Source: Candidatus Nomurabacteria bacterium
GTDB taxonomy: Bacteria > Patescibacteriota > Minisyncoccia > Phycocordibacterales > UBA918
Assembly (NCBI GenBank): GCA_020632095.1
Contig: JACKGF010000001.1
Coordinates: forward strand, 669,366 to 733,365
DNA length: 64,000 bases
Direction of reading: 5' to 3'
Shown here piece after piece: positions 18,626 to 53,130 of the stretch. A program made the position numbers and the translations under genes. How positions within the stretch are numbered: the stretch's first letter is position 1; the number at the start of each line of letters is the position of its first letter. The notes beneath the pieces were generated by a model. It was not told the DNA's origin and searched no databases. It worked only from the letters and a program-made list of their open reading frames with translations.

Positions 18626-18879
18626 TGGTGTGTGGTATTAGAAACACTGTATTAATTAATATAGGTGTTTGTGCGTTTGAGGTGGGGATTCAAGGGGATA
18701 ATTAATCAGTTGACTAAACCGCCTTTCAGTAAAACAAACCCCGACTTCGGTCGGGGTTTGTTTTATATCTAAAAACCTTCGGCTTCAGCCGGAGTGTACG
18801 TTTGCAGGCAACGCATACACTAAATACAATACGTATACGCAAACGTACCATTAAAACCCTATCACATTGTTATTACGAA

Positions 18880-19289
18880 ATGAAATACCACCTGGTATGG
18901 ACTCCAAAATACCGAGGTAAGGTACTAGGTCCACAAAAGGTTAAAGACGAGTTACGAAGAACCTTTGAAACCATAACAAGATGGAAACACTGGGAAATCA
19001 TTGAACTCAATATCCAAGAAGACCATATACACATGATTCTATCAGCTTCACCTAGAGACTCCATCTCATACATAATGCAGATGATTAAAGGCACAAAAGC
19101 TCAGCTTGGTTAAAAAAGAAAATTAAAAGAGCTCATGGTCTTTATGAACAAAAGTCACCATGGGCCAGAGGCTATTTTGTTTCTACGATTGGTCTAGATG
19201 AAATGATTATCTGTCGGTATGTTAAACACCAACATCACCATAATCAAGTTGATCAACCATCTCTCTTTACCAAACTTATCTCTGATTAA
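18880..19289 (+). pseudogene. tnpA: IS200/IS605-family TnpA, frameshifted at an A-run
   Basis: MKYHLVWTPKYRGKV..HIHMILSASP..MIKGTKAQLG then a +2 frame continues ..KKKIKRAHGLYEQKSPWARGYFVSTIGLDEMIICRYVKHQ; frameshift at ggttaaaaaagaaaatt; hairpins on both sides (18726-18758; 19301-19316; 19354-19375). Confidence 0.6.
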
Positions 19290-19636
19290 CTATGTATCTG
19301 CCCGCTTCGCGGGCCTGAAGCTCACGCCGTTAGGTTGAGCCAAAGCCACCGGCCCTAAGGCCGGTAGTTGTTTACTTACAAAACCAACGTCCGTGGTTCA
19401 TTACAGATTGGATAGAGTTTGATTAACTTAATTTAATAGAAAAAATTATTAAACAAACATCTACTCGTCCCCCACCTAAAGAAGGTGACAAAAAGGAGGT
19501 TTTTGACAATGATGATTAATATTTATAAAAAATATTAATCTAGATCTAATGATGGGTTTTATTGGATTTGTGTAAGTGAGCTATTTTTAATTCTACCTTT
19601 CAAAACAAATTGTTTAAAATAACAAGAACTTTACTA

Positions 19637-29256: not shown

Positions 29257-29328
29257 CAGTTTGCTTGTTTCGTGGACACAAAACACCGGCAAAGGCCGGT
29301 GTCTGTTTTGTGTCCACGACTGGAGTTG
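29257..29328. repeat. 72-nt direct repeat (copy 1) comprising a tRNA-Leu 3'-end fragment plus a long bulged hairpin
   Basis: Identical to 29448-29519; contains gtccacgactggagttg (reverse complement of the tRNA-Leu T-loop and acceptor 3' strand) and hairpin GTGGACACAAAACACCGGC-AAAG-GCCGGTGTCTGTTTTGTGTCCAC. Confidence 0.85.
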
Positions 29329-29447
29329 GTCACAAGTTACTAAGTATAATTGTTCACTTCGTTCCAATTCTACTAAGTACTTTCGACCCCGCCTCGACTG
29401 CAGCATAGCTGCATGTCTGCGGCCTTCAACTCCAGACACAAGCAAAG

Positions 29448-29519
29448 CAGTTTGCTTGTTTCGTGGACACAAAACACCGGCAAAGGCCGGTGTCTGTTTT
29501 GTGTCCACGACTGGAGTTG
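29448..29519. repeat. 72-nt direct repeat (copy 2), overlapping the genuine 3' end of tRNA-Leu
   Basis: Exact duplicate of 29257-29328. Confidence 0.85.
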
Positions 29520-31610: not shown

Positions 31611-34600
31611 TTGCCATTTAGATTAAAATGTACTACATTTACGCATATTATGGAGCATAAGAAGTACGCACAAGTACTCAAAAATTCTCTAAAGAAGACA
31701 GTGGGACCGAAAATATACATCCGTGGTGACGGGTATTACGACCATGGGAGAATTGATAATTTTGATATCACGGTAGCACACAGTGATAGTACAGTAACAA
31801 TCGAAGGAAAAGTAAGAGGTACCCGTAATTACAAAACATCGGGAGTATATGATTCACACAAAACGACATTCACTAATCTGAACTGCAGTTGTCCATATAG
31901 GTACAATTGTAAACATGCCACGGCACTGGCGTTGAAGTTTATTGAAGAGTGTGAATACATCTGGGGTGATTTTGCCGATAACCATGACCCGTCTGACGCG
32001 TCGCGCCAGAGGCACGACGTATCAGGTGCGAAAGATTTTAATGAACTATCCAAAAGACTTAACTTTTTAGGAATTGATACTTCCAACCTATCGAAGGATA
32101 TCTTGGAACAATTACAAGAGGCCGTAATAAAAACTAATCCCCTTCAACCACTTTTTTCTGATCTTGCAGACATGCAAGATCACACACATTTGAAACAGGC
32201 CACACAATCAATAAACTATACAGCAACTAAAGTGGGGTCCGAGCAAAAACCATTTTCTGAACGTTATTTTGTAAACATAACTGCACATTACACTAGTGTA
32301 AGTATACAATTTTCTCAATTTAGTAATAATTACTATTACAACAACAGTAGTATTCCAGAACTTGATAAACTGTTACGTGAAGAAAATCTCACCAAACAAG
32401 AACAGGTGCTCATTGAATACGTAAAACACACCCACGCCTTCATGTATTCAAGTAATACGACAGATTATGGTGAATTGTTTAAACTAATAAGGGATTCGGG
32501 GCTTATCGTGCGTGAAGCAGGTCAATATGGTAAAGCCATGTCAGATTTTCATTTTGCAGAAGAACCGAAGAAGTTGCCAGCACGACTGTATGATGCGTCT
32601 GAAAATGTTGAAGGCTGCATTCCTGAATTTATTTTTGAACTCGATCCAAAGTATAGCTACAGCGCATCCATGTCATTGCTTGTAGGTAAAAATAATCTCG
32701 TTGTTATTGATAAGGATAAAATCTACATACATAAAATACCTAGAAAGATACTACAACTTATCAGTCGTGCTACTGAAAACCAACACACTTCCTACGGATA
32801 TAAAGTAAGTGAAGATAGCCCGCATACAACATTAACTCATAGCGAGGTAATACACATCAACTCGCTTATAACGAGTATGCATAAATACTTAGATTACACT
32901 GGTACTTTAGAAGCCAACTTCACAGTAACAGAAAAAGCCAAAGCCAAAGCAGTGATTGTGGCCGACTATGATTACGGATCACCAAAACTAATCGTTTCAC
33001 CATCAATTGACTACGGTCTGAAAAACATACCAATTGGTCAATTGCTTATGTACCGTGCTTCGAGCTATGGTAGCGGTATCAAGCGTAAGAAGGTACCTGG
33101 ACTAAGTAGTACCATGTTGCTTTGGCGTGAAGGTAGCTCCATTTGGTATGTCAGAAGAAATAAAACTATGGAAATTAAACTCTTCATTGACATAAATGAG
33201 AATCATGCCGCTCTGGGATTCAATCAAAAAATGAGTGTTTATTTAGCGAGTAATAAAACAATCAATGAGTTCATCATCTCCTTTTGGCCAAAAATCGAAG
33301 CCCTTGGATACGACATCATTTTTCCAAATGACGACTTCACAGTCGCGCCAGAAACTTTTACCGCAAATGCAGATATTAATCTTGATACCGAAAATGATTG
33401 GCTTACTTTTGATGTAGAGACATACTGTGGCGATGGTAAGGTCGATCTACAAACTTTGCGCAATTACATCAGTGGTAAAAGTGAGTTTTTTAAAGATATT
33501 GATGGAAACCTGCGTAAGGTTGAGAATAAGGATGATTTGGAACGCTTCATACTGATGCTGGAGAGTTTTTATGAACGCGAAAACGGACTCTTTGAAGGAC
33601 GAACATACAATGCCTGCGAACTTGAAAGCGTATTCACCGAATCTGATTACTATACCGCAAAGTTCAATTCTGGTTTCAAAAAATTTACCCAAGAAGCTAA
33701 ACGAGGTAGACCAGTGAAGAAAGTACGCCTGCCCAAGCACTTTGAGGAAATCATGCGCGCCTATCAAAAAGAGGGTATCGACTGGGCTCATTTTTTACAA
33801 AAGTATCATTTCGGTGGTGTGTTAGCTGATGACATGGGACTAGGAAAAACCCTACAGACCCTAGCCCTCATTTCAATGTCCACAAAAAAGAAGAACAACC
33901 GACCCTCTCTAGTGGTGGCACCAAAGTCCTTATTATATAACTGGATGGATGAAGTTACAAAATTTGCTCCACATCTGAAGGCGGCCACCCTTGATGACCT
34001 GCCCTCAGAACGCAAAAAAATTCTTAAAAACGCAGCCAAATATGATGTACTTATTACCTCATACCCTATCTTACAAAAAGATTTTTCTGAATATGAGAGA
34101 CTCAATTTAAAATTCAATTATTGCATCTTGGACGAGGCCCAATCGATTAAAAATCACCAGACCAAAAACGCGCAGGTTGTAAAAAAAGTGAATGCTTCTT
34201 ACCGTCTAGCTCTAACTGGTACACCGCTTGAAAATACTGTTGCAGAAATATGGTCGATATTTGAATTTTTAATGCCGGGTTTTCTGGGTAAAAATTCCAC
34301 GTTTGTAAAACAGTACCAAAACCCAATAATGAATAAAAATAGTACCGCTGCTATCACTCATCTACGTAGAAAAATTTCCCCGTTTATGTTACGTCGAACA
34401 AAAAGTGCTGTGTTGAAGGAATTACCCTCAAAGATAGAGCAAGTAAGTCACGTTGAATTAACAGACGCCCAAAATGTCCTCTATCAAGAAGTGCTAGCGA
34501 ATATCAAACAAGAAGTGTTTGATATCGTAAAAGAGAAAGGATTTAAAAATGCCCACATTCACATTCTTGCCGGATTAACTAAACTTAGACAGGTGTGCAA

Positions 34601-35153
34601 CCATCCGTTTTTATTGCTGAAAAAAGGAGACTATCGTGAGTATGAGTCGGCAAAAATGGAATTGTGTCTGGAGCTCGTGCGAGAAATTTCCTCAGCAGAC
34701 AGGAAAGTACTTGTATTTAGTCAATTTACATCAATGCTCGACATCTTAGCCTGTGAACTGGATGGCCAACAAGTGAGATATTCTTACCTTTCAGGAAAGA
34801 CCCGTAAGAGGCAAGATGTCATAAAAGCATTTACTGAGGACCCTAAAATATCAGTGTTCCTGATTAGCTTAAAAGCCGGAGGTACCGGACTGAATCTAAC
34901 AGCCGCTGATAACGTAATTATATTTGATCCATGGTGGAACCCAAGTGTGGAACGACAAGCTATGGATCGAGCACACAGGATTGGTCAAAAAAATTCCGTG
35001 AATGTGTATAGGCTTATCACCAAAGGAACTATCGAGGATAAAATTGTAGCCCTCCAACAACGCAAAAAAGCGCTGTTTGACAGTCTCGTCAGTGAAAGCG
35101 CTGACCTATTCAAAAAACTCACTTGGGAAGAAGTGCAAGGGCTATTTGAATAA
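31611..35153 (+). CDS. SNF2-family helicase (RapA/HepA-like) with N-terminal SWIM zinc finger
   Basis: SWIM CSCPYRYNCKHATALAL; helicase motifs I LADDMGLGKTLQTLAL, II ILDEAQSIKN, III LTGTPLEN; C-terminal helicase domain (VLVFSQF.., DPWWNPSVERQAMDRAHRIGQ). Confidence 0.85.
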   Translation: MPFRLKCTTFTHIMEHKKYAQVLKNSLKKTVGPKIYIRGDGYYDHGRIDNFDITVAHSDSTVTIEGKVRGTRNYKTSGVYDSHKTTFTNLNCSCPYRYNCKHATALALKFIEECEYIWGDFADNHDPSDASRQRHDVSGAKDFNELSKRLNFLGIDTSNLSKDILEQLQEAVIKTNPLQPLFSDLADMQDHTHLKQATQSINYTATKVGSEQKPFSERYFVNITAHYTSVSIQFSQFSNNYYYNNSSIPELDKLLREENLTKQEQVLIEYVKHTHAFMYSSNTTDYGELFKLIRDSGLIVREAGQYGKAMSDFHFAEEPKKLPARLYDASENVEGCIPEFIFELDPKYSYSASMSLLVGKNNLVVIDKDKIYIHKIPRKILQLISRATENQHTSYGYKVSEDSPHTTLTHSEVIHINSLITSMHKYLDYTGTLEANFTVTEKAKAKAVIVADYDYGSPKLIVSPSIDYGLKNIPIGQLLMYRASSYGSGIKRKKVPGLSSTMLLWREGSSIWYVRRNKTMEIKLFIDINENHAALGFNQKMSVYLASNKTINEFIISFWPKIEALGYDIIFPNDDFTVAPETFTANADINLDTENDWLTFDVETYCGDGKVDLQTLRNYISGKSEFFKDIDGNLRKVENKDDLERFILMLESFYERENGLFEGRTYNACELESVFTESDYYTAKFNSGFKKFTQEAKRGRPVKKVRLPKHFEEIMRAYQKEGIDWAHFLQKYHFGGVLADDMGLGKTLQTLALISMSTKKKNNRPSLVVAPKSLLYNWMDEVTKFAPHLKAATLDDLPSERKKILKNAAKYDVLITSYPILQKDFSEYERLNLKFNYCILDEAQSIKNHQTKNAQVVKKVNASYRLALTGTPLENTVAEIWSIFEFLMPGFLGKNSTFVKQYQNPIMNKNSTAAITHLRRKISPFMLRRTKSAVLKELPSKIEQVSHVELTDAQNVLYQEVLANIKQEVFDIVKEKGFKNAHIHILAGLTKLRQVCNHPFLLLKKGDYREYESAKMELCLELVREISSADRKVLVFSQFTSMLDILACELDGQQVRYSYLSGKTRKRQDVIKAFTEDPKISVFLISLKAGGTGLNLTAADNVIIFDPWWNPSVERQAMDRAHRIGQKNSVNVYRLITKGTIEDKIVALQQRKKALFDSLVSESADLFKKLTWEEVQGLFE

Positions 35154-35311: not shown

Positions 35312-35384
35312 GCGCGATTAGCTCAGTTGGTAGAGCAGCTCGTTTACACCGAGAAGGTCAGGAGTTCAAGTCTCTTATCGCGCA
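35312..35384 (+). tRNA. tRNA-Val (anticodon TAC)
   Basis: Acceptor GCGCGAT/ATCGCGC, D-arm GCTC-AGTTGGTA-GAGC, anticodon loop TTTACAC, T-arm AGGAG-TTCAAGT-CTCTT, discriminator A. Confidence 0.9.
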
Positions 35385-35391
35385 CACAGGT

Positions 35392-35444
35392 AAAACAAAG
35401 ACGCAATTCTTTTTTAGAATTGCGTCTTTGTTTTAGAAACTGAA
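35392..35444 (+). terminator. Strong hairpin directly downstream of tRNA-Val (candidate intrinsic terminator)
   Basis: AAAACAAAGACGCAATTCT-TTTT-AGAATTGCGTCTTTGTTTT, perfect 19-bp stem flanked by A/T runs. Confidence 0.6.
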
Positions 35445-35502
35445 CTGCTTCAGTTTCGTGCCTGTGTGCGAGGCGGAGACATATTTTCCTCCCCTTTCCT
35501 AG

Positions 35503-35577
35503 GGAGGGAAATAGTCGAGCCGGGGTAGCGAACACTTAGTAGAATTGGAACGTAGTGAACAATTATACTTAGTGATT
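35503..35577 (+). repeat. Approximately 72-nt core element shared (about 85% identity, inverted) with 29329-29400 next to tRNA-Leu
   Basis: gtcgagccggggtagcgaacacttagtagaattggaacgtagtgaacaattatacttagtgattcgtgacc aligns with the reverse complement of gtcacaagttactaagtataattgttcacttcgttccaattctactaagtactttcgaccccgcctcgac. Confidence 0.8.
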
Positions 35578-35683
35578 CGTGACCACTAAAATCCCCAACC
35601 CACATGCAAACTGCTTTGCTTCCGGAGAGACTTGAAAAGAGCGAATTTATCGCACGGAGCGGAGCGAGTATGATTTGAGCGCC

Positions 35684-35748
35684 GGGTGAGAAAGTCTGGG
35701 AGACTTTTGCAAGAGGTTGCCCGCTCGCAAGAGCGACAACCTGAACAG
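35684..35748 (+). repeat. Copy B of the structured-RNA-like motif family
   Basis: GGGTGAGAAAGTCTGGGAGACTTTTGCAAGAGGTTGCCCGCTCGCAAGAGCGACAACCTGAACAG; inner stem AAAGTC/GACTTT; hairpin GGTTG-CCGCTC-GCAA-GAGCG-CAACC. Confidence 0.55.
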
Positions 35749-35820
35749 AATTCGTAGAATTCGAGTAGTACAATATTTTGGAGTTCGGAGAACGAACAAA
35801 ATATTGATACGAAGGTGACC

Positions 35821-35834
35821 AAGTCTCTTATCGC
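35821..35834 (+). repeat. Duplicated tRNA-Val 3'-end fragment (aagtctcttatcgc), about 440 bp downstream of the tRNA
   Basis: gaaggtgaccAAGTCTCTTATCGCagacag matches tRNA-Val 35357-35383 (gaaggtcaggagttcAAGTCTCTTATCGCgcaca). Confidence 0.6.
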
Positions 35835-35906
35835 AGACAGACACTTTACAATACAATATATTCGTTATACTGTTCGACTAGCTGAAAGTTCACTTGGAGA
35901 TTTACC

Positions 35907-36467
35907 ATGCTTACTATTTATGTAAGTCCTCACAGTCACCAGCTTACTACCGCTGATGGTCAGGTTATGACCGTCAGAGGAGTGTTTGTGAGTAAGGAAG
36001 GTGGCTTAGTAAGTTTGAGAGACTTTGAATCACCATCTGATTTGGAAGATGTGCAAATTATACTGGTGCAGGGACGGTTGAAGCATAAAATCCTTCGGCT
36101 CCCCATGGACCTCAAACAGGCTATAATTCGTTTTTTGTGTGAATATCACGCAAGGATAAACATAGAGTTTGATTGCTACGCATTTGCAAATATGGTCAAA
36201 GGAGTAGAAATTCACAAAGTTCATGACATGGTTGCTTTCTGGAAGACATCTCATAAACCAAGGAGAATGCCTCTCGGCTCAATTGTTTTCTTACTTAGTG
36301 GAGATAACGCGTTTCATCATGCTGCTATCTATATCAGTTCTAGTCTATACATTTCAGTGTATGGGGCTGGTGGCGACTTTGAAGTAGCGACCCTGAAAGC
36401 AATGAAGCGAGACTACCACGCAAGTGAGGTCGTTGTTGCACATCCACGAGAAATACCATTATGGTAA
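35907..36467 (+). CDS. Hypothetical protein (first gene of the array)
   Basis: Intact 186-aa ORF. Confidence 0.4.
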   Translation: MLTIYVSPHSHQLTTADGQVMTVRGVFVSKEGGLVSLRDFESPSDLEDVQIILVQGRLKHKILRLPMDLKQAIIRFLCEYHARINIEFDCYAFANMVKGVEIHKVHDMVAFWKTSHKPRRMPLGSIVFLLSGDNAFHHAAIYISSSLYISVYGAGGDFEVATLKAMKRDYHASEVVVAHPREIPLW

Positions 36468-36592
36468 ATCTTTTTAGGAACTAAATCCGGGAAGAGACTT
36501 TAGGAATAACCACCCCACGACACAAAGGCACCCCGCTTTCTGTGACGATGGGGTGTCTTTTAATATGCAGGGCTCTTCTCTTATAAAACCAT

Positions 36593-36617
36593 TCTAACAT
36601 CGTCCCACAAGGTGCAA
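36593..36617 (+). repeat. Inter-unit conserved motif, site 1
   Basis: ttctaacatcgtcccacaaggtgca; embedded in a ~110-nt element about 80% identical to site 5. Confidence 0.7.
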
Positions 36618-36654
36618 GTAAGAACCCAGCTCCTTAACTAGCACTTTTTTTCGT

Positions 36655-36948
36655 TCAAGTCTCTAGCTGTTTTTTTCTACTCACAATCATGTATGTGCCA
36701 AACCAAGAACCGATTGCAATTGGAATAATGTATAGATAATTCTGAACATAACTCAACACTCCAAGCGCCAATAAAAAGTGCATCAGCGCTCCAGTATTTG
36801 CAGCCTATAAAGCATTAAGCTCGGTTACAGCGAGAGTGTAATGTGCGTACATGGCATCAACTATTAAGTAAGCAATAAAGACACCGGACGCAATTAAAAA
36901 ATTGAAGGTTTCAATTGATTGGTAAAAGCTTTCGATAGAAAATTCCAT
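36655..36948 (-). pseudogene. Small two-TM membrane protein ORF with a single in-frame TAG (codon 48)
   Basis: MEFSIESFYQSIETFNFLIASGVFIAYLIVDAMYAHYTLAVTELNAL*AANTGALMHFLLALGVLSYVQNYLYIIPIAIGSWFGTYMIVSRKKQLET; 98 codons open apart from the TAG at 36805-36807. Confidence 0.35.
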
Positions 36949-36977
36949 GCCAAAATTATACCTTTTCTTTTAAAACC

Positions 36978-37002
36978 GTTCTAACGTCGTCCCACATGCT
37001 GC
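36978..37002 (+). repeat. Inter-unit conserved motif, site 2
   Basis: ttctaacgtcgtcccacatgctgca. Confidence 0.7.
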
Positions 37003-37064
37003 ACAATTCATTTTAGCTTTATTACAAAGGAAAATTTATTTGATTCCTTGGTACAATCATACGT

Positions 37065-37589
37065 ATGCAAATGATTGTTATTGGTCCTATGGGTAGCGGC
37101 AAAAGCACGCTAACAAGAAAGATTTCTCAGAAATTTAATATTCCAAGACTTGAATTGGATCGACTGTGGTTTGATGCTGGTGGTCATGATTGCTTAATGA
37201 ATGGTTGCACAAAAGAAGAGAAGCAGTTGGTTAAGGAAGAAATAAGCAAAAAGATTTCAGATTTTCTATCATCGAACAATCAATGGATCATAGATGGTAC
37301 TCATTCTACAATTCGACCATTACTGGCCGAAAAAGCTGATACAGTAGTCCTGATTCAAAGGCCGATACTGAATCGACTTTTTAGTCATGTAGTTAGGGTA
37401 ATCAAAGGTAAGGACCGACACCCTGAGACAGGCTTTTGGCAGGACCTTAAACATACCCTAACTATTTTTGATAGGTGGTTGCATAGTGGACATAAGAATC
37501 AGACTGATGCTGTAATGCCTTACAGAAACAAATTGGTTACTCTAAGAAGTTTTGAAGAGATTGATAGTTATTTTAATTCGCTTGTATAA
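37065..37589 (+). CDS. P-loop NTPase / adenylate-kinase-like (AAA, topology-modulation-protein-like) small kinase
   Basis: Walker A IGPMGSGKSTL; size and pattern like shikimate/adenylate kinase-like proteins. Confidence 0.5.
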   Translation: MQMIVIGPMGSGKSTLTRKISQKFNIPRLELDRLWFDAGGHDCLMNGCTKEEKQLVKEEISKKISDFLSSNNQWIIDGTHSTIRPLLAEKADTVVLIQRPILNRLFSHVVRVIKGKDRHPETGFWQDLKHTLTIFDRWLHSGHKNQTDAVMPYRNKLVTLRSFEEIDSYFNSLV

Positions 37590-37593
37590 AAAG

Positions 37594-37618
37594 TTCTAAC
37601 GTCGTCCCACAGGGTGAA
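37594..37618 (+). repeat. Inter-unit conserved motif, site 3
   Basis: ttctaacgtcgtcccacagggtgaa; followed by a bidirectional terminator hairpin (37621-37655). Confidence 0.7.
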
Positions 37619-37654
37619 CTCTAAAACTAAACCGCCAAATTGGGCGGTTTAGTT

Positions 37655-38065
37655 TTAATTACTCTCAACGTACTTTTTAAAATTATCTAGATAAGCCTGC
37701 CACCCCGCACGCTGCATTTCGACAGGGTTTTCAGATTCTGGTTCAAAGCTTTGACTAATGTGTACTCCTGCTGGTGACTCTTCAAATTCCACGTTTACAC
37801 CCCTGCCGTCATCCAACTTATACTTTAATAATCGGTTTTCAGTTACTTCTGTATAAGTACCATTGAAGTTAAATTCGACACTTCCATCTTTGGCGAACAT
37901 TCGACTTGAAAACGATCCCCCTTTTTGTATGTCATTAACAATTCCTTCAGCACCCCAATCATCTGATGCAAATGCCCACCCAGCCATATGCTCAATACCA
38001 GTCCAGAAATCCCATACTTTTTGAAGCGGCGCTTGAATGGTTGTTTCAATAATTATTTTTTCCAT
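37655..38065 (-). CDS. SRPBCC-superfamily protein (Aha1/activator-of-Hsp90-ATPase-like)
   Basis: MEKIIIETTIQAPLQKVWDFWTGIEHMAGWAF resembles the Aha1/SRPBCC N-terminus; start taken at internal M. Confidence 0.55.
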   Translation of the reverse strand: MEKIIIETTIQAPLQKVWDFWTGIEHMAGWAFASDDWGAEGIVNDIQKGGSFSSRMFAKDGSVEFNFNGTYTEVTENRLLKYKLDDGRGVNVEFEESPAGVHISQSFEPESENPVEMQRAGWQAYLDNFKKYVESN

Positions 38066-38095
38066 ATGTTTATGGTACATCATTAAAGAGAAAAA

Positions 38096-38120
38096 TTCTA
38101 AAGTCGTCCCACAAGTTAAA
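38096..38120 (+). repeat. Inter-unit conserved motif, site 4
   Basis: ttctaaagtcgtcccacaagttaaa. Confidence 0.7.
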
Positions 38121-38188
38121 CACTGAAAATAAGCCTGTTTTTCAAGGTTTTTGCATACGTAAGTAAAAAAGTAGATACTTTAGAACTT

Positions 38189-38566
38189 TTGTCTACATCG
38201 CTGAGTTTTACATCTTGGAAACAGTCAAAGGATATACACATGAAAGAAGTTTCAGTTGATGCAACAGGTGTCCGTTTTTCAGTATTAAGAGGCGGTAAAG
38301 AAGTTGGTCACGCATATCTTTATATGCTCAACAATGATTTACACAATAAACCCTTTGGTTTACTAGAAGACGTGTATGTAGATTCAAACTATCGAGGTGA
38401 AGGTGTTGCCACAGAATTACTTGAAGCGGTGTTGAAAAAAGCTCAGGAAAAATGCTATAAGCTAATTGCGACAAGTCGTAACGATGGAACACGCACTGCA
38501 GTTCACGAATGGTATACCAGACTTGGTTTCGATAATTATGGAACGGAGTTTCGACTTAACTTCTAG
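38189..38566 (+). CDS. GNAT-family N-acetyltransferase
   Basis: VDSNYRGEGVATELLEAVLKKAQEKCYKLIA (GNAT motif A: R/Q-x-x-G-x-G/A). Confidence 0.7.
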   Translation: MSTSLSFTSWKQSKDIHMKEVSVDATGVRFSVLRGGKEVGHAYLYMLNNDLHNKPFGLLEDVYVDSNYRGEGVATELLEAVLKKAQEKCYKLIATSRNDGTRTAVHEWYTRLGFDNYGTEFRLNF

Positions 38567-38632
38567 TTACAAAGAGACACTTTCTGAATCAGCCCTGCAT
38601 TTAATATGCAGGGCTCTTCTTTTGTAAAACCG

Positions 38633-38657
38633 TTCTAATGCAGTCCCACCTGGTGCA
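38633..38657 (+). repeat. Inter-unit conserved motif, site 5
   Basis: ttctaatgcagtcccacctggtgca; preceded by terminator hairpin CAGCCCTGCAT-TTAATA-ATGCAGGGCTC. Confidence 0.7.
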
Positions 38658-38674
38658 CACTGAATTCGAGTTCC

Positions 38675-38992
38675 TTAATATCCACTTTTGCCGTTCAAAT
38701 TTCTAGCTAGTTCACTGATTTGTTTTGCTATTTTAAGATCTGAGTCAGTTATTTTATCGCCCACATCATGAGTACAGTATGAAAACCGAACCTTATTATA
38801 GGAACTACAAAACTCTGGGTGGTGATTCATTTCTTCTGCTACAGTAGCGACGTTGTTAATAAATTTAATTGCATCAGCAAAAGTACGGAAGACAAATTCC
38901 GCTGTAATTTTGTTCTCAATGACTTTCCAATCTGGTAAATCTAAAAGTAATTGTTGAATAGCCGTTTCTCCAAGAATAGTATGCTTTGACAT
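38675..38992 (-). CDS. Pterin-4a-carbinolamine dehydratase (PCD/DCoH)
   Basis: EEMNHHPEF......YNKVRFSYCTH matches the PCD signature [E]-x3-H-H-P-x5-Y-x12-H. Confidence 0.75.
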   Translation of the reverse strand: MSKHTILGETAIQQLLLDLPDWKVIENKITAEFVFRTFADAIKFINNVATVAEEMNHHPEFCSSYNKVRFSYCTHDVGDKITDSDLKIAKQISELARNLNGKSGY

Positions 38993-39014
38993 GTTTTTAT
39001 ATACTAAAATTAAA

Positions 39015-39473
39015 TTAAATTTTTTCTTCCCCTAGATATACCTCAAACAAAAGTACTTTTGGTACTATCCCTTTTGCCCTAGAGATCATCAGCCTAGTAT
39101 TGCCAGACACTAAATGGTACCGGTTCCTAAACTTCATAATGATTGGAGCATCAAGTGTCGTGCCCGCGTCAAACTTACCTTGAAGTTCTTCCCAGTCTCT
39201 TTTCTGTACACCCCCAGGATTTGAATATTTGTGCACGGACTGCCAATCCCCCTCTTGAAGCATATTTGACTCTGTATTTTCCAAAGCACTCCAAACATCT
39301 TCACCCAAAGAAATCATCTCACCCTCATGAGCTAAAAACATCAACACCGAAGAATCTATCTCAAATTCTCCATCTTCTCTAAATTCTCGAGACACCCTTT
39401 CAAACTCGTTAACTTCATGCTCGATATCAGGATATTTGAAATAGTCTGATGATTTTTCTATCGATTCGTTCAC
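39015..39473 (-). CDS. Hypothetical protein
   Basis: ORF only. Confidence 0.35.
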   Translation of the reverse strand: MNESIEKSSDYFKYPDIEHEVNEFERVSREFREDGEFEIDSSVLMFLAHEGEMISLGEDVWSALENTESNMLQEGDWQSVHKYSNPGGVQKRDWEELQGKFDAGTTLDAPIIMKFRNRYHLVSGNTRLMISRAKGIVPKVLLFEVYLGEEKI

Positions 39474-39508
39474 ACTGTGATTATATCAGTCGCACCCACG
39501 CAAAAACA

Positions 39509-39532
39509 CTCTACGTCGTCCCGTATCGCGCA
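39509..39532 (+). repeat. Inter-unit conserved motif, site 6 (diverged)
   Basis: ctctacgtcgtcccgtatcgcgca. Confidence 0.55.
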
Positions 39533-39598
39533 CTAATTTGACAACCTGCAGTATTTAGTTCACTATTTTAATAACCTTAAATTACAGGAGACAGGCTA

Positions 39599-40012
39599 AT
39601 GAAGGTTGTTGTCCTTTTTATATCAGCTGGACTTTTTTTTGGAATATGGCCACTTTTAATGAATAAAAGTGGTTTACCTGGTTTTGCTTCTGCCGCTCTT
39701 TTTTCTGGCATAGCGTTTCTTTTCGTGACACCTATAGCAATTGGTAGCGGACAGCTTCAACAGATTAATTTCTCTGGACCGCTAATGTTTGCTGTTCTCG
39801 CCGCTATTGTTGGAGCACTTGGATTACTTGTGTTCAATACTGGATTATCGGAAGTAAAAACCGGACAGATTAGCGGAATGTTCACGACAATGATCATGGT
39901 TCAACTTTCTGTGCCCGCAGTCTATCAGATGTTTCTATCTGGAGACCTTTCTCTTAAAAGGATTGCCGGGATTGGCGGCGCATTTGCCGTAACTTATCTT
40001 TTGACGAGTTGA
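39599..40012 (+). CDS. Hypothetical 4-TM membrane protein
   Basis: Hydrophobic helices; terminator AAAAGATCG..CGATCTTTTTTTT at 40041-40080. Confidence 0.4.
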   Translation: MKVVVLFISAGLFFGIWPLLMNKSGLPGFASAALFSGIAFLFVTPIAIGSGQLQQINFSGPLMFAVLAAIVGALGLLVFNTGLSEVKTGQISGMFTTMIMVQLSVPAVYQMFLSGDLSLKRIAGIGGAFAVTYLLTS

Positions 40013-40100
40013 ACAAACTTACCTAAATCAAGACTCGTCCCAAAAGATCGTATGGTTAAGCTCAGCGATCTTTTTTTTATTTTTAATATGTTAAAACAGA

Positions 40101-40123
40101 CCTGATCGTCCCACACTTCACAC
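40101..40123 (+). repeat. Inter-unit conserved motif, site 7
   Basis: cctgatcgtcccacacttcacac; second partial copy gactcgtcccaaaag at 40033-40047. Confidence 0.55.
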
Positions 40124-40130
40124 AAACACC

Positions 40131-40622
40131 TCAAAGCTCAATTTTTCCTCTCGTGACTTCAAAATACAATTTGGCTACAGCAGCCTGCGTCACTGGACTA
40201 AACTCACTATTCATAGATTTTTCATATAGTTCTTCAAGGGAATAATCCTTAGTACCTAAAATCTCCCCATCAAGATCTTCAGACACCACACTAAGCTGTC
40301 TCGCAACAAAGTAGTAGCAAATATCATTCACTGTTCCGGTAGATTTATGAATGACTAGTTCTTGCCAATCAGCCGCTTCTAAACCTAACTCTTCCAAAAG
40401 CTCTCTCTTGGCTGCCTGAAGTGAAGCTTCTCCCTGCTCGATAATTCCAGATTGAATTTTTTCTCCAACCTTATTATCACCAAGAATTTTTTCAACAGTC
40501 AATCTAATCTTCTTTTCATCCGTAACAAGAAAAGTATGTACAGAATCTCTTAAAAACACCCTCTCTATACCATTTTCTTTGGTAACTTTTATAAAATCTC
40601 CCAAAAAAACTTTTTCTAACAT
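40131..40622 (-). CDS. NUDIX hydrolase
   Basis: Nudix box GIIEQGEASLQAAKRELLEELGL. Confidence 0.75.
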   Translation of the reverse strand: MLEKVFLGDFIKVTKENGIERVFLRDSVHTFLVTDEKKIRLTVEKILGDNKVGEKIQSGIIEQGEASLQAAKRELLEELGLEAADWQELVIHKSTGTVNDICYYFVARQLSVVSEDLDGEILGTKDYSLEELYEKSMNSEFSPVTQAAVAKLYFEVTRGKIEL

Positions 40623-40639
40623 ACTAAAATAGTTTAATC

Positions 40640-41365
40640 CTATAATCTTTTATACAACAACCTAAAAATTACTTTATGGAAATTTGCTAGCTGCTTATTT
40701 TCTATTATCACCACTTGCTCTGCGGTTAAGTCAATAATAGTAATCCGATCTCCATACACAAGCTGAATAATATTTTGCTCGAACTGTTCGGCTTCCACTG
40801 GGATAAATTTTATAAACCTTTCCAGACGCGGTTTCTTCTGCTTACCCGACGCCTGATTACTAATAACCAAACGTTCTAATTTTTTCTTATCTCGCCTTTC
40901 ACGGTAGTCGCGGGCCAAATACTGATTAACACTAGCCAAATCGCGCTCAGATGTGTAACGATAAAAAGTATCACCTTTGTCTGAATGAATGATAACATCA
41001 TCAAAAGCCGCCCTAATACCTGCAGGGCCGTACAAAAAACGGATACTTTGTGGCACTTCTTTTTCTCTTTCTTTTGCGTACCTCTCGACTATTTGTCCTG
41101 ATTCTTGATCAGACAGCTTCATGACTGACTTAAGTTTACGAATACTTTCCGCGCTGTAATATGTACGACGCCCGATATTATTAGACCTGATTAATCCATT
41201 CTTCAACAATTCTTTCAAACAACGATAAACCACCACTCTCGATACTTTCGCACGTATAGCAATTGTTGCCACCAAGAGTGAGTCTTTGCTTTTGTATATA
41301 ACTTCATACACCTGGTCTGCATGTTTTGGATAACCCAACCGTTTGAATATATCTTTTAATTTCAT
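40640..41365 (-). CDS. TrmB-like HTH transcriptional regulator
   Basis: N-terminal wHTH (VYEVIYKSKDSLLVATIAIRAKVSRVVVYRCLKELLKNGLI) plus C-terminal domain. Confidence 0.5.
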   Translation of the reverse strand: MKLKDIFKRLGYPKHADQVYEVIYKSKDSLLVATIAIRAKVSRVVVYRCLKELLKNGLIRSNNIGRRTYYSAESIRKLKSVMKLSDQESGQIVERYAKEREKEVPQSIRFLYGPAGIRAAFDDVIIHSDKGDTFYRYTSERDLASVNQYLARDYRERRDKKKLERLVISNQASGKQKKPRLERFIKFIPVEAEQFEQNIIQLVYGDRITIIDLTAEQVVIIENKQLANFHKVIFRLLYKRL

Positions 41366-41472
41366 ATTTAATATGTATCACTTTTGTTACACTTATACAA
41401 CTTTTTCTGCACCCATTCCTTTTTTCATCTATTCTGTACAAGGTCATTCACGTTCATTGAAAGGAGAAAGAC

Positions 41473-41778
41473 ATGGCAAACGTCAAAGCTATTAGTCCGC
41501 AGGAGGTTATCAATTACCGCAAAGAGTCCATCCCGAACGAAGTAATCGAGGTGTTTAATGAATTGATTGCGGAAAATTTTAACGGTCACTGCGCTTACGT
41601 CAGACAAGATGAAGCAGTGAAACGCATCGTGGCCAAAGGTATCAATAGAAATCACCTGTTCAATCGTGGTTGGCTCGATATCGAGGATATTTATCGGTCA
41701 ATGGGTTGGAAAGTCGAGTACGACAAACCTGCTTACGACGAAAGTTATGAAGCGAGTTTTGCCTTCTCCATAAAGTAA
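41473..41778 (+). CDS. Hypothetical protein
   Basis: ORF only. Confidence 0.3.
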   Translation: MANVKAISPQEVINYRKESIPNEVIEVFNELIAENFNGHCAYVRQDEAVKRIVAKGINRNHLFNRGWLDIEDIYRSMGWKVEYDKPAYDESYEASFAFSIK

Positions 41779-41902
41779 TTAGTTTCCAAAAAGCCCCACG
41801 ATATTTTGTGGGGTTTTTCTAAAATTTAATTTATCTATGTCCCTCCTTTACACATCAACCCCATCTTGATAAGGTCTCAGTAGACAAACAAGGAGAAGAA
41901 AA

Positions 41903-42481
41903 GTGGTAAAAATACAACCTATCGCAGAAGGCATTGTTGAATCTTTAGCTATCAACGGTGAAACGAGACAAAGTATCATGTTTGAAATTGATGGTCCAGT
42001 TGGTGACTCTCACTCGGGATTTGTTCGTAAGCTAAGTGGACACGATGGTGCTTATATCGCCACCTCTACAAGATCAAAAGGAGATTTGTTTTATAACTTC
42101 AGATCATGGACAGGACTTTCGATGGAAGAAATAGAGGCGGTCGAAAAAACACTTGGTTACAAAATACCTGTCGGTTGTCTACTGGAAAATATCATTATTT
42201 CCGGAATTCCAAATTTTTCTAAGTTGGAACCAACCAGCAGGCTACACTTCCCTCCTCACAGAGTTGGAAAAGAAGTCAAACAGGCAATACTGGCAGTATG
42301 GGAAGAAAACGGACCCTGTCGTACAGTTGGTGAACGTTTGGAAAAAGAGCACAAGATAAAAAACTTAAAGACTGATTTCATCCGTGAAGCGCGAGGTAAG
42401 CGTGGTGTCTTCGGACCTGTTCTTTCCGCTGGTATTATCCAACAGGGAGATAAGGTGCTCGTGTTCCCGCCAGTTCGTTAA
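41903..42481 (+). CDS. MOSC-domain protein (YiiM-like)
   Basis: GCLLENIIISGI...conserved Cys in ENGPCRTVGERL; size consistent with MOSC. Confidence 0.55.
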   Translation: MVKIQPIAEGIVESLAINGETRQSIMFEIDGPVGDSHSGFVRKLSGHDGAYIATSTRSKGDLFYNFRSWTGLSMEEIEAVEKTLGYKIPVGCLLENIIISGIPNFSKLEPTSRLHFPPHRVGKEVKQAILAVWEENGPCRTVGERLEKEHKIKNLKTDFIREARGKRGVFGPVLSAGIIQQGDKVLVFPPVR

Positions 42482-42679
42482 TCATTAATCCTTTAGTCGG
42501 TACTCGCTTGCGAGAACCGACTTTTTATTTCCCTTTTCAACCACTGAATTACAACATTATAAAACAAACCAATTCCCTGACAGTAGCGGGATTGAAAAAG
42601 AGAGTAGTTTGTGGCACTGTACTGATCAAGTAGAGCGAGAGGCTCTGTGAGTTCAATACAAGATTAGAGAGGAAACGAA

Positions 42680-43003
42680 ATGGAGAATGAAACAATTGCG
42701 ACAATCAGTGTTGTCTTGTGTTTTATCGGCGGATGTTTTTATATACGTTGGTCTGAAAAAATATCCATACGAAGGGCACTTGCAAAAGAAGGCTTCGCGA
42801 CTGCTGCAGTATTCACTGAGATAGGCGGAGCAAAAACACTCACCGCCACTAGCGAGTCTGGCATGGTATTGGTTGCAAAAGTAATAAAGCAACCTGAAGA
42901 CCTCAATGTCAGAATCAAAATTGCTGTCACCGCACCTTTCTGGGACACATACTACTTCATGGAACTTTCCGACAGAACATTTGTGCAAGCCCAACCTGTG
43001 TGA
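42680..43003 (+). CDS. Hypothetical small membrane protein
   Basis: N-terminal TM. Confidence 0.3.
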   Translation: MENETIATISVVLCFIGGCFYIRWSEKISIRRALAKEGFATAAVFTEIGGAKTLTATSESGMVLVAKVIKQPEDLNVRIKIAVTAPFWDTYYFMELSDRTFVQAQPV

Positions 43004-43093
43004 ACCACAGTCAAAGCTGTACCGCCTTCCCTTCCTGGGTCGGCGGTTTTTTATTTAGTGTCTTCTATAGATTATTGTTTCTTCAACAAATCA

Positions 43094-43717
43094 CTAATCC
43101 TCAATTTTAAGACCAAGTAGCGAAGCTAAGTAAATTGCTTGAGCAGTATCTACTGTCACCTCCCCGAAAGATTCCTTCTCTAGGCAAATATTTTCTATCT
43201 GCGAACTCTTTAAACTTACCTTTTTTAACTTCGCTTGCGAAAACTGAGATTCTCTTAAATCACAATCTAGGAAATCAACATTTATTAAATCAACCCCTAA
43301 AAAATCTGCCTCTTGCAGAACACACGAATCAAATACACAATCTTTAAACTTACTGTACCTAAAATTTGCTACATTCAATTTGCATGACTTGAAATAACAA
43401 TCCCTAAAAATTACGTTTGGCATCTGAATTCCCTGCATCCAGCTACTTTTAAATTCTGACTGCTCTATTAAAAAATCTTTTAGTAAAGCCCCCACAAAAC
43501 TACATTTAGCAAAAATACAACCAACCACCCTCCCTTCCTTTATCTCAACTTTGTCGAAAACAACTTTTTCAAACACACACTGCTCCGCACGAAGCTCTTC
43601 TATTTCAGACCCAGAAACATCTTCGCCTATAATATTTTTCTGCTCTAGGCTGGCTATGTTAAATTCACTTAACATTCCTTCTCTAAGACGCTTTATATCT
43701 ATAACCGGACTTTTCAT
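43094..43717 (-). CDS. Pentapeptide-repeat protein
   Basis: Tandem A(D/N)LxxA/F-type pentapeptides (CYFKSCKLNVANFRYSKFKDCVFDSCVLQEADFLGVDLINVDFLDCDLRESQFSQAKL). Confidence 0.75.
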   Translation of the reverse strand: MKSPVIDIKRLREGMLSEFNIASLEQKNIIGEDVSGSEIEELRAEQCVFEKVVFDKVEIKEGRVVGCIFAKCSFVGALLKDFLIEQSEFKSSWMQGIQMPNVIFRDCYFKSCKLNVANFRYSKFKDCVFDSCVLQEADFLGVDLINVDFLDCDLRESQFSQAKLKKVSLKSSQIENICLEKESFGEVTVDTAQAIYLASLLGLKIED

Positions 43718-43810
43718 CAGCTCATTCTAGCAAGTTAAGTCACATCACACTAAAGTAGTCCTAACGTCATTCAACATAATGTATGAATAAAAAGAGGAGT
43801 TTGTTATCAC

Positions 43811-43827
43811 TATCGTCCCCCACAAGG
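43811..43827 (+). repeat. Degenerate or split copy of the inter-unit motif, site 8
   Basis: tatcgtcccccacaagg, with tcctaacgtcattcaac 40 nt upstream (43760-43776); the motif appears interrupted. Confidence 0.4.
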
Positions 43828-44111
43828 AGAAGCTGGAAGGACATTAAATTAAAAATTTAACCTTTCCTTAACAGATTAAAAATGTTCCTAGTGTTTTTAC
43901 CTGCGGACACGGCAGAAGGTTTCGTTCTTGAGCAGATTTTACCTGAACTATCTAGTCTAGAAATATCTAGCGCTGCTACCGATAATTGCTCTGTCATTTA
44001 TTTTTAAAAGAATGTGTTATATACACAACTACAAACATTGACAAAGGTCAACTTACACACTAAAGTCTCGGAAGTAGTACAAATCAACACACACCTTGAA
44101 GGAGATAAATC

Positions 44112-50432: not shown

Positions 50433-50507
50433 GCCCCTATAGTTTAATGGATAAAACGAGAGGCTTCTATCCTTTTGATGTGGGTTCGATTCCTACTGGG
50501 GGCACCA
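50433..50507 (+). tRNA. tRNA-Arg (anticodon TCT), CCA encoded
   Basis: Acceptor GCCCCTA/TGGGGGC, D-arm GTTT-AATGGATA-AAAC, anticodon stem AGAGG/CCTTT with loop CTTCTAT, T-arm GTGGG-TTCGATT-CCTAC, discriminator A + CCA. Confidence 0.9.
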
Positions 50508-52109: not shown

Positions 52110-53130
52110 CTTTCTCAGATCCGGCTCCCTCCAGCTACCCCTCAAGTAGGACAGATTGCTCATAATAATACTCACTCGAAATCCTAAAATCAATACACTC
52201 TTTCGGTCGGTCATTCAAGAAGGCATGAATCTCATTCAATTCTTCTTGAGTAACAGACGCAATGTCTCTCCGCTTTGGAACAAAGCATCTAATCCAACGA
52301 TTAGTATTCTCTACCAGTCCCTTCTCCCAAGAATGATAAGGGTGGCAGAAATAGATTGGAGCCTGTATGATTTGTTCTAGTTCCGTCCAGTGACGGAATG
52401 CAATGTCGTTGTCGGTGGTGATACTCTTGACTATAATATTGCTAAACATTTTAGAGAACGCTGCACTGATTGTGTGGCGTTTTCTATTGGGTAACTGACG
52501 TACCAAGCTGTATTTAGTTAAACGGTCAGTAGCCACTAGAAGTACGTATGGACTGTACTTAGAGACAATGAAGTCTAGTTCATAGTGACCTAGCTCATGG
52601 CTACCAAGAGGACGAATATCTATATATTTACGGCCATCATCAGCTGGTTTATGTGTGGTCCGTTTCGGACCACTTTTCTTTTTGTTCCAACGCCAGAATA
52701 GTCGATATTCCAGACCACGACTTTCTATGAACTTGTATATAGCTTTGGCGGAACAGGTAACACCGAGCTCTCGTTTGAGATGTCCACTGATTTGTTTAGG
52801 GGTCCACTTCTTCTCCAATTTGTCTTCTACGAAACGAATCAGGAAACTATCTAGAGCCACCTTGAGACACTGACGTTTAGCCCGCCAACGACGTTGACTT
52901 ACTTTTAGTTGGGCTTGCTTGGCGTCATAGACTCCATTAACCCTATTCTTCTTTAGTTCCTGACTGATGGTGTTGGGACTACGTTTGAGGAAGATGGCTA
53001 TTTCTCTGATCAAACTCCCTGCGTTCAATAACTTTTCAATTACGAAACGCTCCTCAAATTGTATGTGTCTGTATGTTTTCATAGACAGCTAATTTACTTT
53101 ATAGCTGTCCTACTTCAAAGGTGTCTGGGG
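52110..53130 (-). mobile_element. IS30-family insertion sequence (approximate boundaries)
   Basis: Transposase gene flanked by imperfect terminal inverted repeats containing GTAGGACAG (52126-52136) and CTGTCCTAC (about 53113-53123). Confidence 0.55.
52135..53082 (-). CDS. IS30-family DDE transposase
   Basis: N-terminal HTH; integrase core; C-terminal HPYHSWEKGLVENTNRWIRCFVPK parallels the IS30 ..[23 protein letters not shown] motif. Confidence 0.85.
   Translation of the reverse strand: MKTYRHIQFEERFVIEKLLNAGSLIREIAIFLKRSPNTISQELKKNRVNGVYDAKQAQLKVSQRRWRAKRQCLKVALDSFLIRFVEDKLEKKWTPKQISGHLKRELGVTCSAKAIYKFIESRGLEYRLFWRWNKKKSGPKRTTHKPADDGRKYIDIRPLGSHELGHYELDFIVSKYSPYVLLVATDRLTKYSLVRQLPNRKRHTISAAFSKMFSNIIVKSITTDNDIAFRHWTELEQIIQAPIYFCHPYHSWEKGLVENTNRWIRCFVPKRRDIASVTQEELNEIHAFLNDRPKECIDFRISSEYYYEQSVLLEG

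Follow-up and report, generated by a model that had tools for sequence, protein, structure and literature searches.

The array behind tRNA-Val

The window analysed here is a stretch of 64,000 nucleotides (64 kb) of a Candidatus Nomurabacteria bacterium (contig JACKGF010000001.1, positions 669,366 to 733,365, forward strand), and its subject is an array of small accessory genes downstream of the tRNA-Val(TAC) gene, in which units, mostly of one gene, are separated by copies of a 33-nt site. All copies lay on the + strand and were positioned at gene boundaries. Co-oriented, tRNA-linked arrays of the same site were spread across the candidate phyla radiation (CPR; Patescibacteria), the site was conserved on one side only, the cassettes (intervals between sites) were modular, and genes encoding large serine recombinases (LSRs) were located at the same tRNA end in relatives. 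Other loci are designated by L numbers. The features of the array are listed below with their positions in the window; gene products are those of open reading frames (ORFs).

35312-35385, +: tRNA-Val(TAC), head of the array (ARAGORN, Rfam)
35386-35812, no strand: non-coding modular unit "SE", a trailer hairpin and conserved hairpin modules, inserted after tRNA-Val and followed by a repeat of the tRNA 3' end
35813-35839, +: decayed direct copy of the tRNA-Val 3' end ("T-type" junction), AGGTGACCAAGTCTCTTATCGCAGACA, 81% identical to 35360-35386
35907-36467, +: unit 1 gene, hypothetical protein of 186 aa (ORF; no Pfam match), with a 44% homologue directly upstream of a site in L047
36585-36617, +: site 1, AAAACCATTCTAACATCGTCCCACAAGGTGCAA; profile E 2e-9
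36618-36664, +: decayed tRNA-Val-like stretch at the 5' edge of unit 2, ..AGCTCCTTAACTAGCAC..GTTCAAGTCTCT
36655-36948, -: unit 2 gene, small membrane ORF, an internal stop leaving pieces of 42 and 47 aa
36972-37004, +: site 2, AAAACCGTTCTAACGTCGTCCCACATGCTGCAC; profile E 4e-12
37065-37589, +: unit 3 gene, P-loop kinase-like (AAA_33/AAA_18; Pfam), with a 49% homologue downstream of a site in L066
37587-37619, +: site 3, whose TAAAAAG prefix contains the stop codon of the kinase gene; profile E 5e-9
37655-38083, -: unit 4 gene, SRPBCC/AHSA1 (Pfam)
38089-38121, +: site 4, AGAAAAATTCTAAAGTCGTCCCACAAGTTAAAC; profile E 2.5e-5
38189-38566, +: unit 5 gene, GNAT acetyltransferase (Pfam), start probably the ATG at 38241
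38626-38658, +: site 5, core with four substitutions; profile E 2e-5
38675-39473, -: unit 6, two genes, pterin-4a-carbinolamine dehydratase (PCD; 38675-38992, Pfam) and a hypothetical protein (39015-39473)
39502-39534, +: site 6, decayed remnant, whose final 10 nt TATCGCGCAC equal the 3' end of the genome's own tRNA-Val; E 1.3
39599-40012, +: unit 7 gene, small membrane protein (ORF, Pfam scan)
40094-40126, +: site 7, decayed remnant, ..GATCGTCCCACAC..; E 3.1
40131-43717: further accessory genes without recognisable sites, probably older units: NUDIX (-), HTH, hypothetical, MOSC, hypothetical, pentapeptide
43751-43828, +: possible split or decayed site, weak, GTCCTAACGTC, about 45 nt, ATCGTCCCCCACAAGG; E 3.7
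50433-50507, +: tRNA-Arg(TCT), conserved far boundary of the variable region (tRNA search)

A 25-nt pattern of the boundary repeat (at most 3 mismatches) matched at 36592, 36979 and 37594, all on the + strand, against an expectation of 0 (100 shuffles). A profile trained solely on sites of other genomes gave five significant + strand copies in the window, starting, from the strongest to the weakest, at 36972, 36585, 37588, 38626 and 38089, and three sub-threshold remnants at 39513, 40106 and 43757 (all +), with no further significant copy on either strand of the window. An earlier note, made from the sequence alone, had described this repeat as always lying on the + strand at the unit boundaries, and both searches confirmed it. 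Five of the seven copies it listed were significant; the other two, at 39509 and 40101, were just decayed remnants, insignificant alone yet on the + strand and precisely within intergenic boundaries. The split or degenerate copy placed at 43760-43827 could be a split site, but it matched weakly.

The start-to-start spacings of sites 1 to 7 (387, 615, 502, 537, about 875 and about 592 bp) were close to the unit lengths estimated before (382, 616, 502, 537, 876 and 592 bp). Site decay increased with distance from tRNA-Val, from sites 1-4, which were near-perfect, through site 5 to the remnants 6 and 7. Sites 1 and 5 had a common element of about 110 nt with 76.6% identity, much as previously noted (about 80%); the decayed tRNA-Val-like stretch that follows site 1 also follows site 5, as part of this element. 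Many cassettes, including those after these two sites, started with such a stretch ending in GTTCAAGTCTCT, which was often followed by an extended -10 box.

The gene content and strands given in the earlier note matched the ORF and Pfam results. Four of the seven units were antisense to the site, and half of the sites faced the 3' end of a convergent gene. At least five genes of the window array had homologues in other arrays, namely those of units 1, 2 and 3, the MOSC gene (66% homologue in the LSR-headed array of L114) and the pentapeptide gene (61-63% homologues adjoining sites in L047 and L064), and distant PCD cassettes were present in tRNA-Pro arrays. The homologue of unit 2 in L077 was intact (104 aa, 61-74% identity) and lay between two sites of a tRNA-Pro array, antisense to the sites, while the 5' end of the unit 2 cassette recurred in L048, L078, L093, L105, L068 and L077. 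In the window, the unit 2 ORF has probably become a pseudogene, as would suit an array that is old and no longer active.

The 33-nt site and its cassettes across Patescibacteria

Scanning one genome per species with the 18-nt core gave 52 loci, 36 of them labelled Patescibacteria (Kaiser-, Nomura-, Pace-, Parcu- and Saccharibacteria), and a metagenome scan added 42 loci. With the profile, 162 sites were found in 79 Patescibacteria loci, at least two sites being present in 40 loci and at least three in 21; the largest arrays were L093 (8 sites), L047 and L033 (7 each). Site spacing had a median of 621 bp (interquartile range 486-798), and mixed site orientation occurred in 0 of the 79 loci. The earlier note had called for a check of the motif in related genomes, and these loci showed its copies to be co-oriented within each locus. 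Matches outside CPR were single, were not flanked by AAAAG and were about as many as expected by chance; a scan of viral contigs gave 3 chance matches without the AAAAG prefix and no sign of phage origin. No account of CPR arrays of this kind turned up in the literature searched.

The information profile of 150 distinct sites showed a sharply bounded 33-nt block composed of AAAAAG, TTCTAAC(G/A)TCGTCCCACA and nGGnnnnC (consensus AAAAAG-TTCTAACRTCGTCCCACA-nGGnnnnC), the last 8 nt of which end like a tRNA 3' end. The block was asymmetric and non-palindromic, and conservation fell to background level immediately to its right. Of the short cassettes (at most 1.5 kb) of all arrays, 58 had a main ORF co-oriented with the site, 12 had an antisense one and 5 had none, and the stop codon was often inside TAAAAG or the TAA of TTCTAA. 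As co-oriented ORFs prevail elsewhere, the alternating gene orientation of the window is atypical.

Where an upstream tRNA gene was visible, the nearest one was co-oriented with the sites in 27 of 28 loci. The tRNAs heading arrays were Val(TAC), Gly(TCC), Gln(CTG/TTG) and Pro(TGG), and the 8-nt suffix of the site fell into two classes, ending in GCAC behind Val, Gly and Pro and in CAGC behind Gln, which correspond to the final 4-5 nt of the tRNAs themselves, ..GCAC in tRNA-Val and tRNA-Gly and ..CAGC in tRNA-Gln. tRNA-Pro has no GCAC end, and its arrays started with a displaced 21-nt 3' fragment of tRNA-Val (L068, L077, L118), the same kind of fragment being the LSR insertion point in L118. 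The idea that the suffix is an exact copy of the adjacent tRNA end proved only partly true, failing at the tRNA-Pro arrays. Partial tRNA copies also served as boundaries, both in the window, where the copy at 35813-35839 lies 453 bp downstream of the tRNA-Val gene, and as tRNA-Val or tRNA-Pro 3' fragments in L068, L077, L118 and L034. The bracket formed by tRNA-Val and tRNA-Arg(TCT) beside the genes for acylphosphatase, RluA and L19 was kept in relatives (L028, L034, L043, L051, L074, L102, L116), with variable content and an inter-tRNA distance of 1.5 to about 15 kb. In the tRNA-Val array of L073, one site (1243-1267, -) carried the suffix ACCCGCAC, the exact 3' end of tRNA-Gly(TCC); judging by this sequence match, which suggests it, a cassette may have moved between arrays at different tRNAs.

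Cassettes were compared all-against-all. Homologous cassettes occupied different arrays and slots, and the homology ended at the site. L078 and L093 had three consecutive common cassettes with 99.6-100% identity and then diverged at a site, and L065 and L068 were identical up to CCCACATGG and divergent after it. In both pairs the fourth suffix base differed along with the right-hand cassette; it tracks that cassette, which puts the breakpoint after CCCACA and before the last 5 nt. Another cassette (89% identity) was found behind the tRNA-Val fragment at the tRNA-Pro locus of L068 and behind a site in L078. The firmest case was that of L068 and L118, with syntenic flanks of 83-85% identity, where the slot of a 513-nt cassette in L068 was taken in L118 by 4.6 kb comprising an LSR element and a small cassette, the homology restarting inside the site. 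As these two populations have diverged, this slot replacement cannot be an assembly artefact. The site followed the orientation of the tRNA whatever the strand of the genes, and the content changed exactly at the site in relatives, which bears out the earlier view of a DNA-level cassette boundary as opposed to a promoter or terminator.

Recombinases at tRNA ends and the proposed insertion mechanism

In relatives, LSR genes (Resolvase and Recombinase domains, most with Zn_ribbon_recom) overlapped or abutted the 3' end of tRNA-Val in L074, L114, L116, L122, L032 and L123. The LSR of L074 (544 aa; Resolvase, Recombinase, Zn_ribbon_recom) overlapped this end, as did the LSR genes of L114 (84% identity), L116 (69%) and L122, and L114 and L116 possessed the synteny of the window (acylphosphatase, RluA, L19). 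The LSR of L118 (51%) abutted the tRNA-Val 3' fragment at the tRNA-Pro locus, those of L120 and L121 (49-50%) abutted the 3' end of the transfer-messenger RNA (tmRNA) gene, and a second LSR family of about 590 aa abutted tRNA-Val in L032 and L123. The L074-type family had 748 matches in Patescibacteria at E <=1e-20.

The far ends of the L074-family elements read AAAAGTTCAA.T.GGG..ATACT..GTGCAC, with the prefix, length and suffix of the motif and a different middle; this variant arm occurred only at LSR elements. The canonical motif was also considered as the P arm of the L118 element and was rejected, the variant arm lying 450 nt before the canonical site. When the motif (AGTTCTA + ACGTC + GTCCCACA..GCAC) was aligned with tRNA-Val (AGTTCAA + GTCTCTCA..GCAC), the distal submotif was 5 nt further out in the motif. 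Of 16 proximal positions, 10-12 matched in tRNA-Val, 9-12 in tRNA-Gln and only 7-8 in tRNA-Gly and tRNA-Pro. Rutherford et al. 2013 (PMC3783163) showed that the zinc-ribbon (ZD) motif of LSR sites is 5 bp closer to the centre in attB than it is in attP.

The reading preferred here, to which a probability of roughly 0.58 is attached, is that units were inserted serially at a tRNA 3' end, most likely through a Patescibacteria LSR acting in trans, with the motif as an attP-type arm. That the motif is a cassette-junction site is held with good confidence, and its assignment to an LSR, the enzyme being deduced indirectly, is slightly favoured. Units are mostly single small genes, with two genes in rare cases; many have a promoter or terminator of their own, and each ends in the 33-nt block. 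Circular arm-bearing units would recombine with the 3' end of the tRNA gene or a displaced copy, the arm landing at the right boundary of the unit, and repeated insertions would push older units outward, where their sites would decay as in the window. Each boundary would be a hybrid site, its left half the element-borne arm (attP-type) and its right half whatever adjoined the target on the right. The T-arm and acceptor 3' strand of the tRNA (AGTTCAA-GTCTCTTATCGCGCAC in the tRNA-Val of the window) are proposed as the attB-type half-site, and the motif would be the attP-type half-site, with its distal submotif 5 bp further from the crossover. A hybrid attR-type site, made up of a P arm and B', would be conserved on one side only, as the motif is. 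The LSR would recognise the canonical motif and exchange strands between CCCACA and the last 5 nt. In the window, the junction of tRNA-Val and its trailer (..GCGCAC followed by ACAGGTAAAAC.., against ..GCAC followed by AACAGGAAATAC in L074) looks like an unoccupied target, and the array, which appears to be currently inactive, would sit behind the displaced tRNA fragment.

Several observations weigh against this reading. No integrase or other recombinase of any kind was encoded among the ORFs of the 64-kb window, which extends the earlier statement that none lies adjacent, and none recurred among the 118 ORFs flanking arrays in 36 loci (25 commonest Pfam families). All readable far ends of LSR elements (L074, L114, L116, L118) bore the variant arm and not the canonical motif; LSRs were linked to the canonical motif by proximity only, in L066 (partial LSR, 740 nt from a site) and L032 (4.7 kb), where it was the next arm-like site after the LSR, and L123, which carries the LSR family of L032, had no site within its 3.4 kb available. 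The weight of the 5-nt offset is modest, with 6-7 of 11 distal matches at one best offset, 7-12 of 16 proximal matches and a T-loop motif common to all tRNAs. The breakpoints of L078/L093 and L065/L068 were on short metagenome contigs that are possibly chimeric at the 34-nt repeat. Strain-level variation was sought in the window array and none was found, so that no mobility was visible in this lineage: eight same-species contigs (99.7-100% identity, from at least 5 samples) aligned collinearly with the window between 31.9 and 45.7 kb, and their identical unit order makes the array static at strain level. The earlier note had held that an identical order in sister genomes, with no variation of units and no recombinase recognising the motif, would speak against a recombining array; such constancy was seen between strains and was not seen at family level. 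Of relatives with a long contig, the nearest was L056 (81% identity, found through RluA), whose contig was cut on the array side.

LSR sites normally have two recognisable half-sites, and attL and attR are inert without a directionality factor. Since both rules hold for standard LSRs, the refilling of an array is not explained by them, which also counts against the preferred reading. A bolder version, in which the arrays form an integron-like gene-capture platform of Patescibacteria built on an LSR in place of IntI, with only the left half-site being read, is put forward tentatively. Reading of the left half-site alone would leave the recombination products as substrates. If this were true, single-gene cassettes could be stacked at tRNA 3' ends, swapped between the arrays of different tRNAs and exchanged across the superphylum.

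The cassette-junction model could also be right with another enzyme, such as a tyrosine integrase, an Xer-type or other protein encoded elsewhere, the LSRs merely using the tRNA-Val hotspot. This accords with the fact that no LSR element was read ending in the canonical motif, that most arrays had no nearby recombinase and that SE-type units had tRNA 3' ends repeated directly over 20-58 nt at their borders, a pattern typical of tyrosine integrases; it is nevertheless judged unlikely, as no tyrosine recombinase was present in any context examined, the motif shares the prefix, length and suffix of confirmed LSR-element ends, and the site had no inverted core repeats around a 6-8-bp overlap. Lower still is the probability given to a selected regulatory or RNA-level signal (for instance a binding site of a conserved CPR protein, or a processing or other element of the 3' untranslated region), with shuffling as a by-product of homologous recombination between the 33-nt repeats. 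Conservation of sequence and not of structure would suit it, as would the position of stop codons in TAAAAG or TTCTAA, the co-orientation of 58 of the 70 ORF-bearing cassettes in other arrays and the sigma-70-like promoter (TTGACA) found at a fixed offset, 4-5 nt after the suffix, in about 8% of sites. However, good sigma-70 promoters were within 70 nt at only 24 of 147 sites, about a dozen of them at the fixed offset, so that most sites had no promoter at a fixed distance and the motif is no obligatory promoter element; the antisense units and convergent 3' ends of the window do not fit such a signal, no significant copy was present beyond the array in the 64 kb, and it would leave unexplained why the sites are linked to tRNA 3' ends, why their suffix matches the tRNA and why LSR elements end as they do.

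The two readings offered by the earlier note, an integron-like array and a REP/RAYT-type array, both fared poorly. attC sites are imperfect palindromes of 57-141 nt (R''-L''...L'-R') that fold as single-stranded DNA, with the inverse core RYYYAAC. A cluster of attC sites lacking an integron integrase (CALIN), with the motif as part of attC, would account for the cassette-sized units, the co-oriented sites and the accessory gene content, and TCTAAC resembles the inverse core; but the 33-nt block is asymmetric, no imperfect palindrome spanned the site, its unconserved right side leaves no R' GTTRRRY partner, and the arrays are anchored at tRNAs and not at attI. When the bottom strands of the seven sites were folded in search of attC-like structure, six were no better than shuffles (z-scores +0.5, 0.0, -5.3, -1.5, +1.4, +0.8 and +0.3 for sites 1 to 7), and the sole strong fold, at site 3, was the adjacent bidirectional terminator hairpin. 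No IntI-type or Phage_integrase protein was found among the ORFs of the window or among the 25 commonest families of the 118 array-adjoining ORFs, and this reading is considered very improbable. The same low standing is given to the motif as a repetitive extragenic palindromic (REP)-like target of REP-associated tyrosine transposases (RAYT), here the IS200-type Y1 enzymes at 12772-13200 and about 18880-19290. REPs are short palindromes, dispersed between genes, that flank the RAYT gene in inverted pairs. Two Y1 transposase genes without TnpB are indeed present in the window, and Y1 enzymes insert in one orientation beside a short target, but the motif forms no hairpin, occurs only in the array and flanks neither TnpA gene, each of which has its own unrelated end hairpins, and Y1_Tnp was absent from the 25 commonest Pfam families of array-adjoining ORFs elsewhere. 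The transposase genes of the window are as follows.

12772-13200, -: IS200-type Y1 transposase (TnpA), intact, with GC-rich hairpins on both flanks and no motif
18802-19290 (about 18880-19290), +: IS200-type TnpA, frameshifted copy, with its own end hairpins and no motif
52135-53082, -: IS30-like transposase (HTH_38 and rve), unconnected with the motif

Other candidates were set aside. As a promoter element, the minus-strand TTAGAA could provide units 2 and 4, though not unit 7, with a -35 box. In a consensus scan, promoter-like sites were fewer than in shuffles and terminator-like sites were no more frequent than in shuffles. A DNA-uptake sequence, a Ter/KOPS-type polar site, CRISPR, a tmRNA and a permuted tRNA were dropped: the site is confined to the arrays, its suffix is matched to tRNAs, and no such gene was detected by ARAGORN or Rfam. 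Rfam searches of the window and seven loci, at both gathering and E-value thresholds, returned tRNAs and chance matches only.

Relation to known systems and further observations at tRNA ends

The composite islands of the staphylococcal cassette chromosome (SCC), inserted at rlmH/orfX, are moved by Ccr large serine recombinases. The arrays resemble SCC in that units enter one after another, in one orientation, at the 3' end of a single conserved gene and are parted by short att repeats, and likewise in that some units lack a recombinase and rely on its supply in trans; the LSR chemistry would be common to both if the assignment made here holds. Unlike SCC, the arrays target the 3' ends of tRNAs (Val, Gly, Gln, Pro), consist mostly of single-gene units of about 0.6 kb, have a 33-nt arm conserved across the superphylum and lack the recombinase in most cases, including the window. 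Integrons have similar single-gene cassettes of about 0.5-0.9 kb, with the site at the 3' end of the ORF, co-orientation, accessory content and the existence of arrays without a recombinase. In contrast to integrons, there is no attC hairpin, IntI or attI/Pc platform here, the site is asymmetric and conserved in sequence, the anchor is a tRNA, and cassettes often have their own promoters and may be antisense.

Tycheposons of Prochlorococcus use few tRNA target genes, with newcomers pushing older elements inward and partial tRNA copies as bounds, and a minority use LSRs (10.1101/2020.12.28.424599); insertion at tRNA 3' ends and partial tRNA copies as boundaries are common to the arrays. Tycheposons, however, span several kb, carry an integrase and replication genes of their own and are bordered by fragments of tRNA genes (10.1101/2020.12.28.424599), whereas the units described here are mostly single small accessory genes without an integrase or replication module, bounded by a conserved non-tRNA arm. 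The site itself is like those of serine integrases (A118/LI, Bxb1, phiC31; PMC3783163) in its half-site of about 25 nt, in the proposed shift of the distal motif, 5 bp closer to the centre in attB than in attP, and in the one-sidedness of hybrid sites. Those systems differ in having two recognisable half-sites and one integration per attB, and attR-like arrays have not been described for them. The array resembles an integron in outcome, SCC in its proposed chemistry and tycheposon islands in target choice.

CPR bacteria have tiny genomes in which few mobile-element systems have been described, and the gain and exchange of their accessory genes are poorly understood. A 33-nt junction extending from Kaiserbacteria- and Paceibacteria-labelled to Saccharibacteria-labelled genomes, at which single-gene cassettes are stacked behind tRNA genes, would represent a general route of gene flux in CPR and a second, independent solution to the problem solved by integrons. 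It would be directly testable, since the site sequence, the candidate enzymes and the target are all defined, and it would provide a rule for annotating hypervariable regions, at which assemblies of CPR genomes may break. Should the LSR link hold, it would also add recombinases with predicted attB/attP pairs to an enzyme class wanted for genome engineering.

The LSR elements at tRNA-Val and tmRNA 3' ends carried mostly anti-phage-type cargo. The 7-kb element of L074 (535-7604) has the LSR at its head and encodes a LexA-like repressor and a cyclic-oligonucleotide-based anti-phage signalling system (CBASS; SMODS and S_4TM). A Shedu SduA_C protein was encoded in L114 (about 6800-11700), an Mrr-like nuclease in L116 (about 6200-11700), and a reverse transcriptase with bAvd, a pair like that of diversity-generating retroelements, in L120 (about 6400-11656).

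Several independent same-species assemblies (L060, L107-L113) ended at or inside the array of the window, either at 35331, 19 nt into tRNA-Val, or in the GNAT gene (38314-38551), which could reflect repeat-induced breaks or unresolved population variation.

The modules of the SE unit recurred after tRNAs in L047, L048, L043, L034, L051, L028, L025 and L039, and elsewhere in the window at 29326-29453 (-) and 7762-7874 (-). They belong to a family of small non-coding modules located directly after tRNA genes, also in L077 and L118, with hairpins and stretches such as GCAAACTGCTTTGCTTCCGGAGAGACTTGAAAAGAGCGAA..GAGCGCC; in many cases the tRNA 3' end was repeated directly on either side of them, and they contained inverted T-arm copies (AGAGACTTGAA ... 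CAAGTCTCT). No Rfam family matched these modules, which could be miniature integrative elements or structured RNAs. The last 58 nt of contig L061 aligned at 100% to both 29271-29328 and 29462-29519 of the window, which implies a 58-nt direct repeat that overlaps the 3' end of tRNA-Leu(GAG) and surrounds a 133-bp insert. The insert coincides with one of the non-coding modules, and the arrangement looks like a second tRNA-end insertion event in the window. Finally, a gene encoding a 1180-aa SNF2/SWIM helicase (31611-35153, +) lies between the acylphosphatase gene and tRNA-Val, while in L114, L116 and L123 acylphosphatase is directly beside tRNA-Val; this gene may be another lineage-specific insertion at the hotspot.

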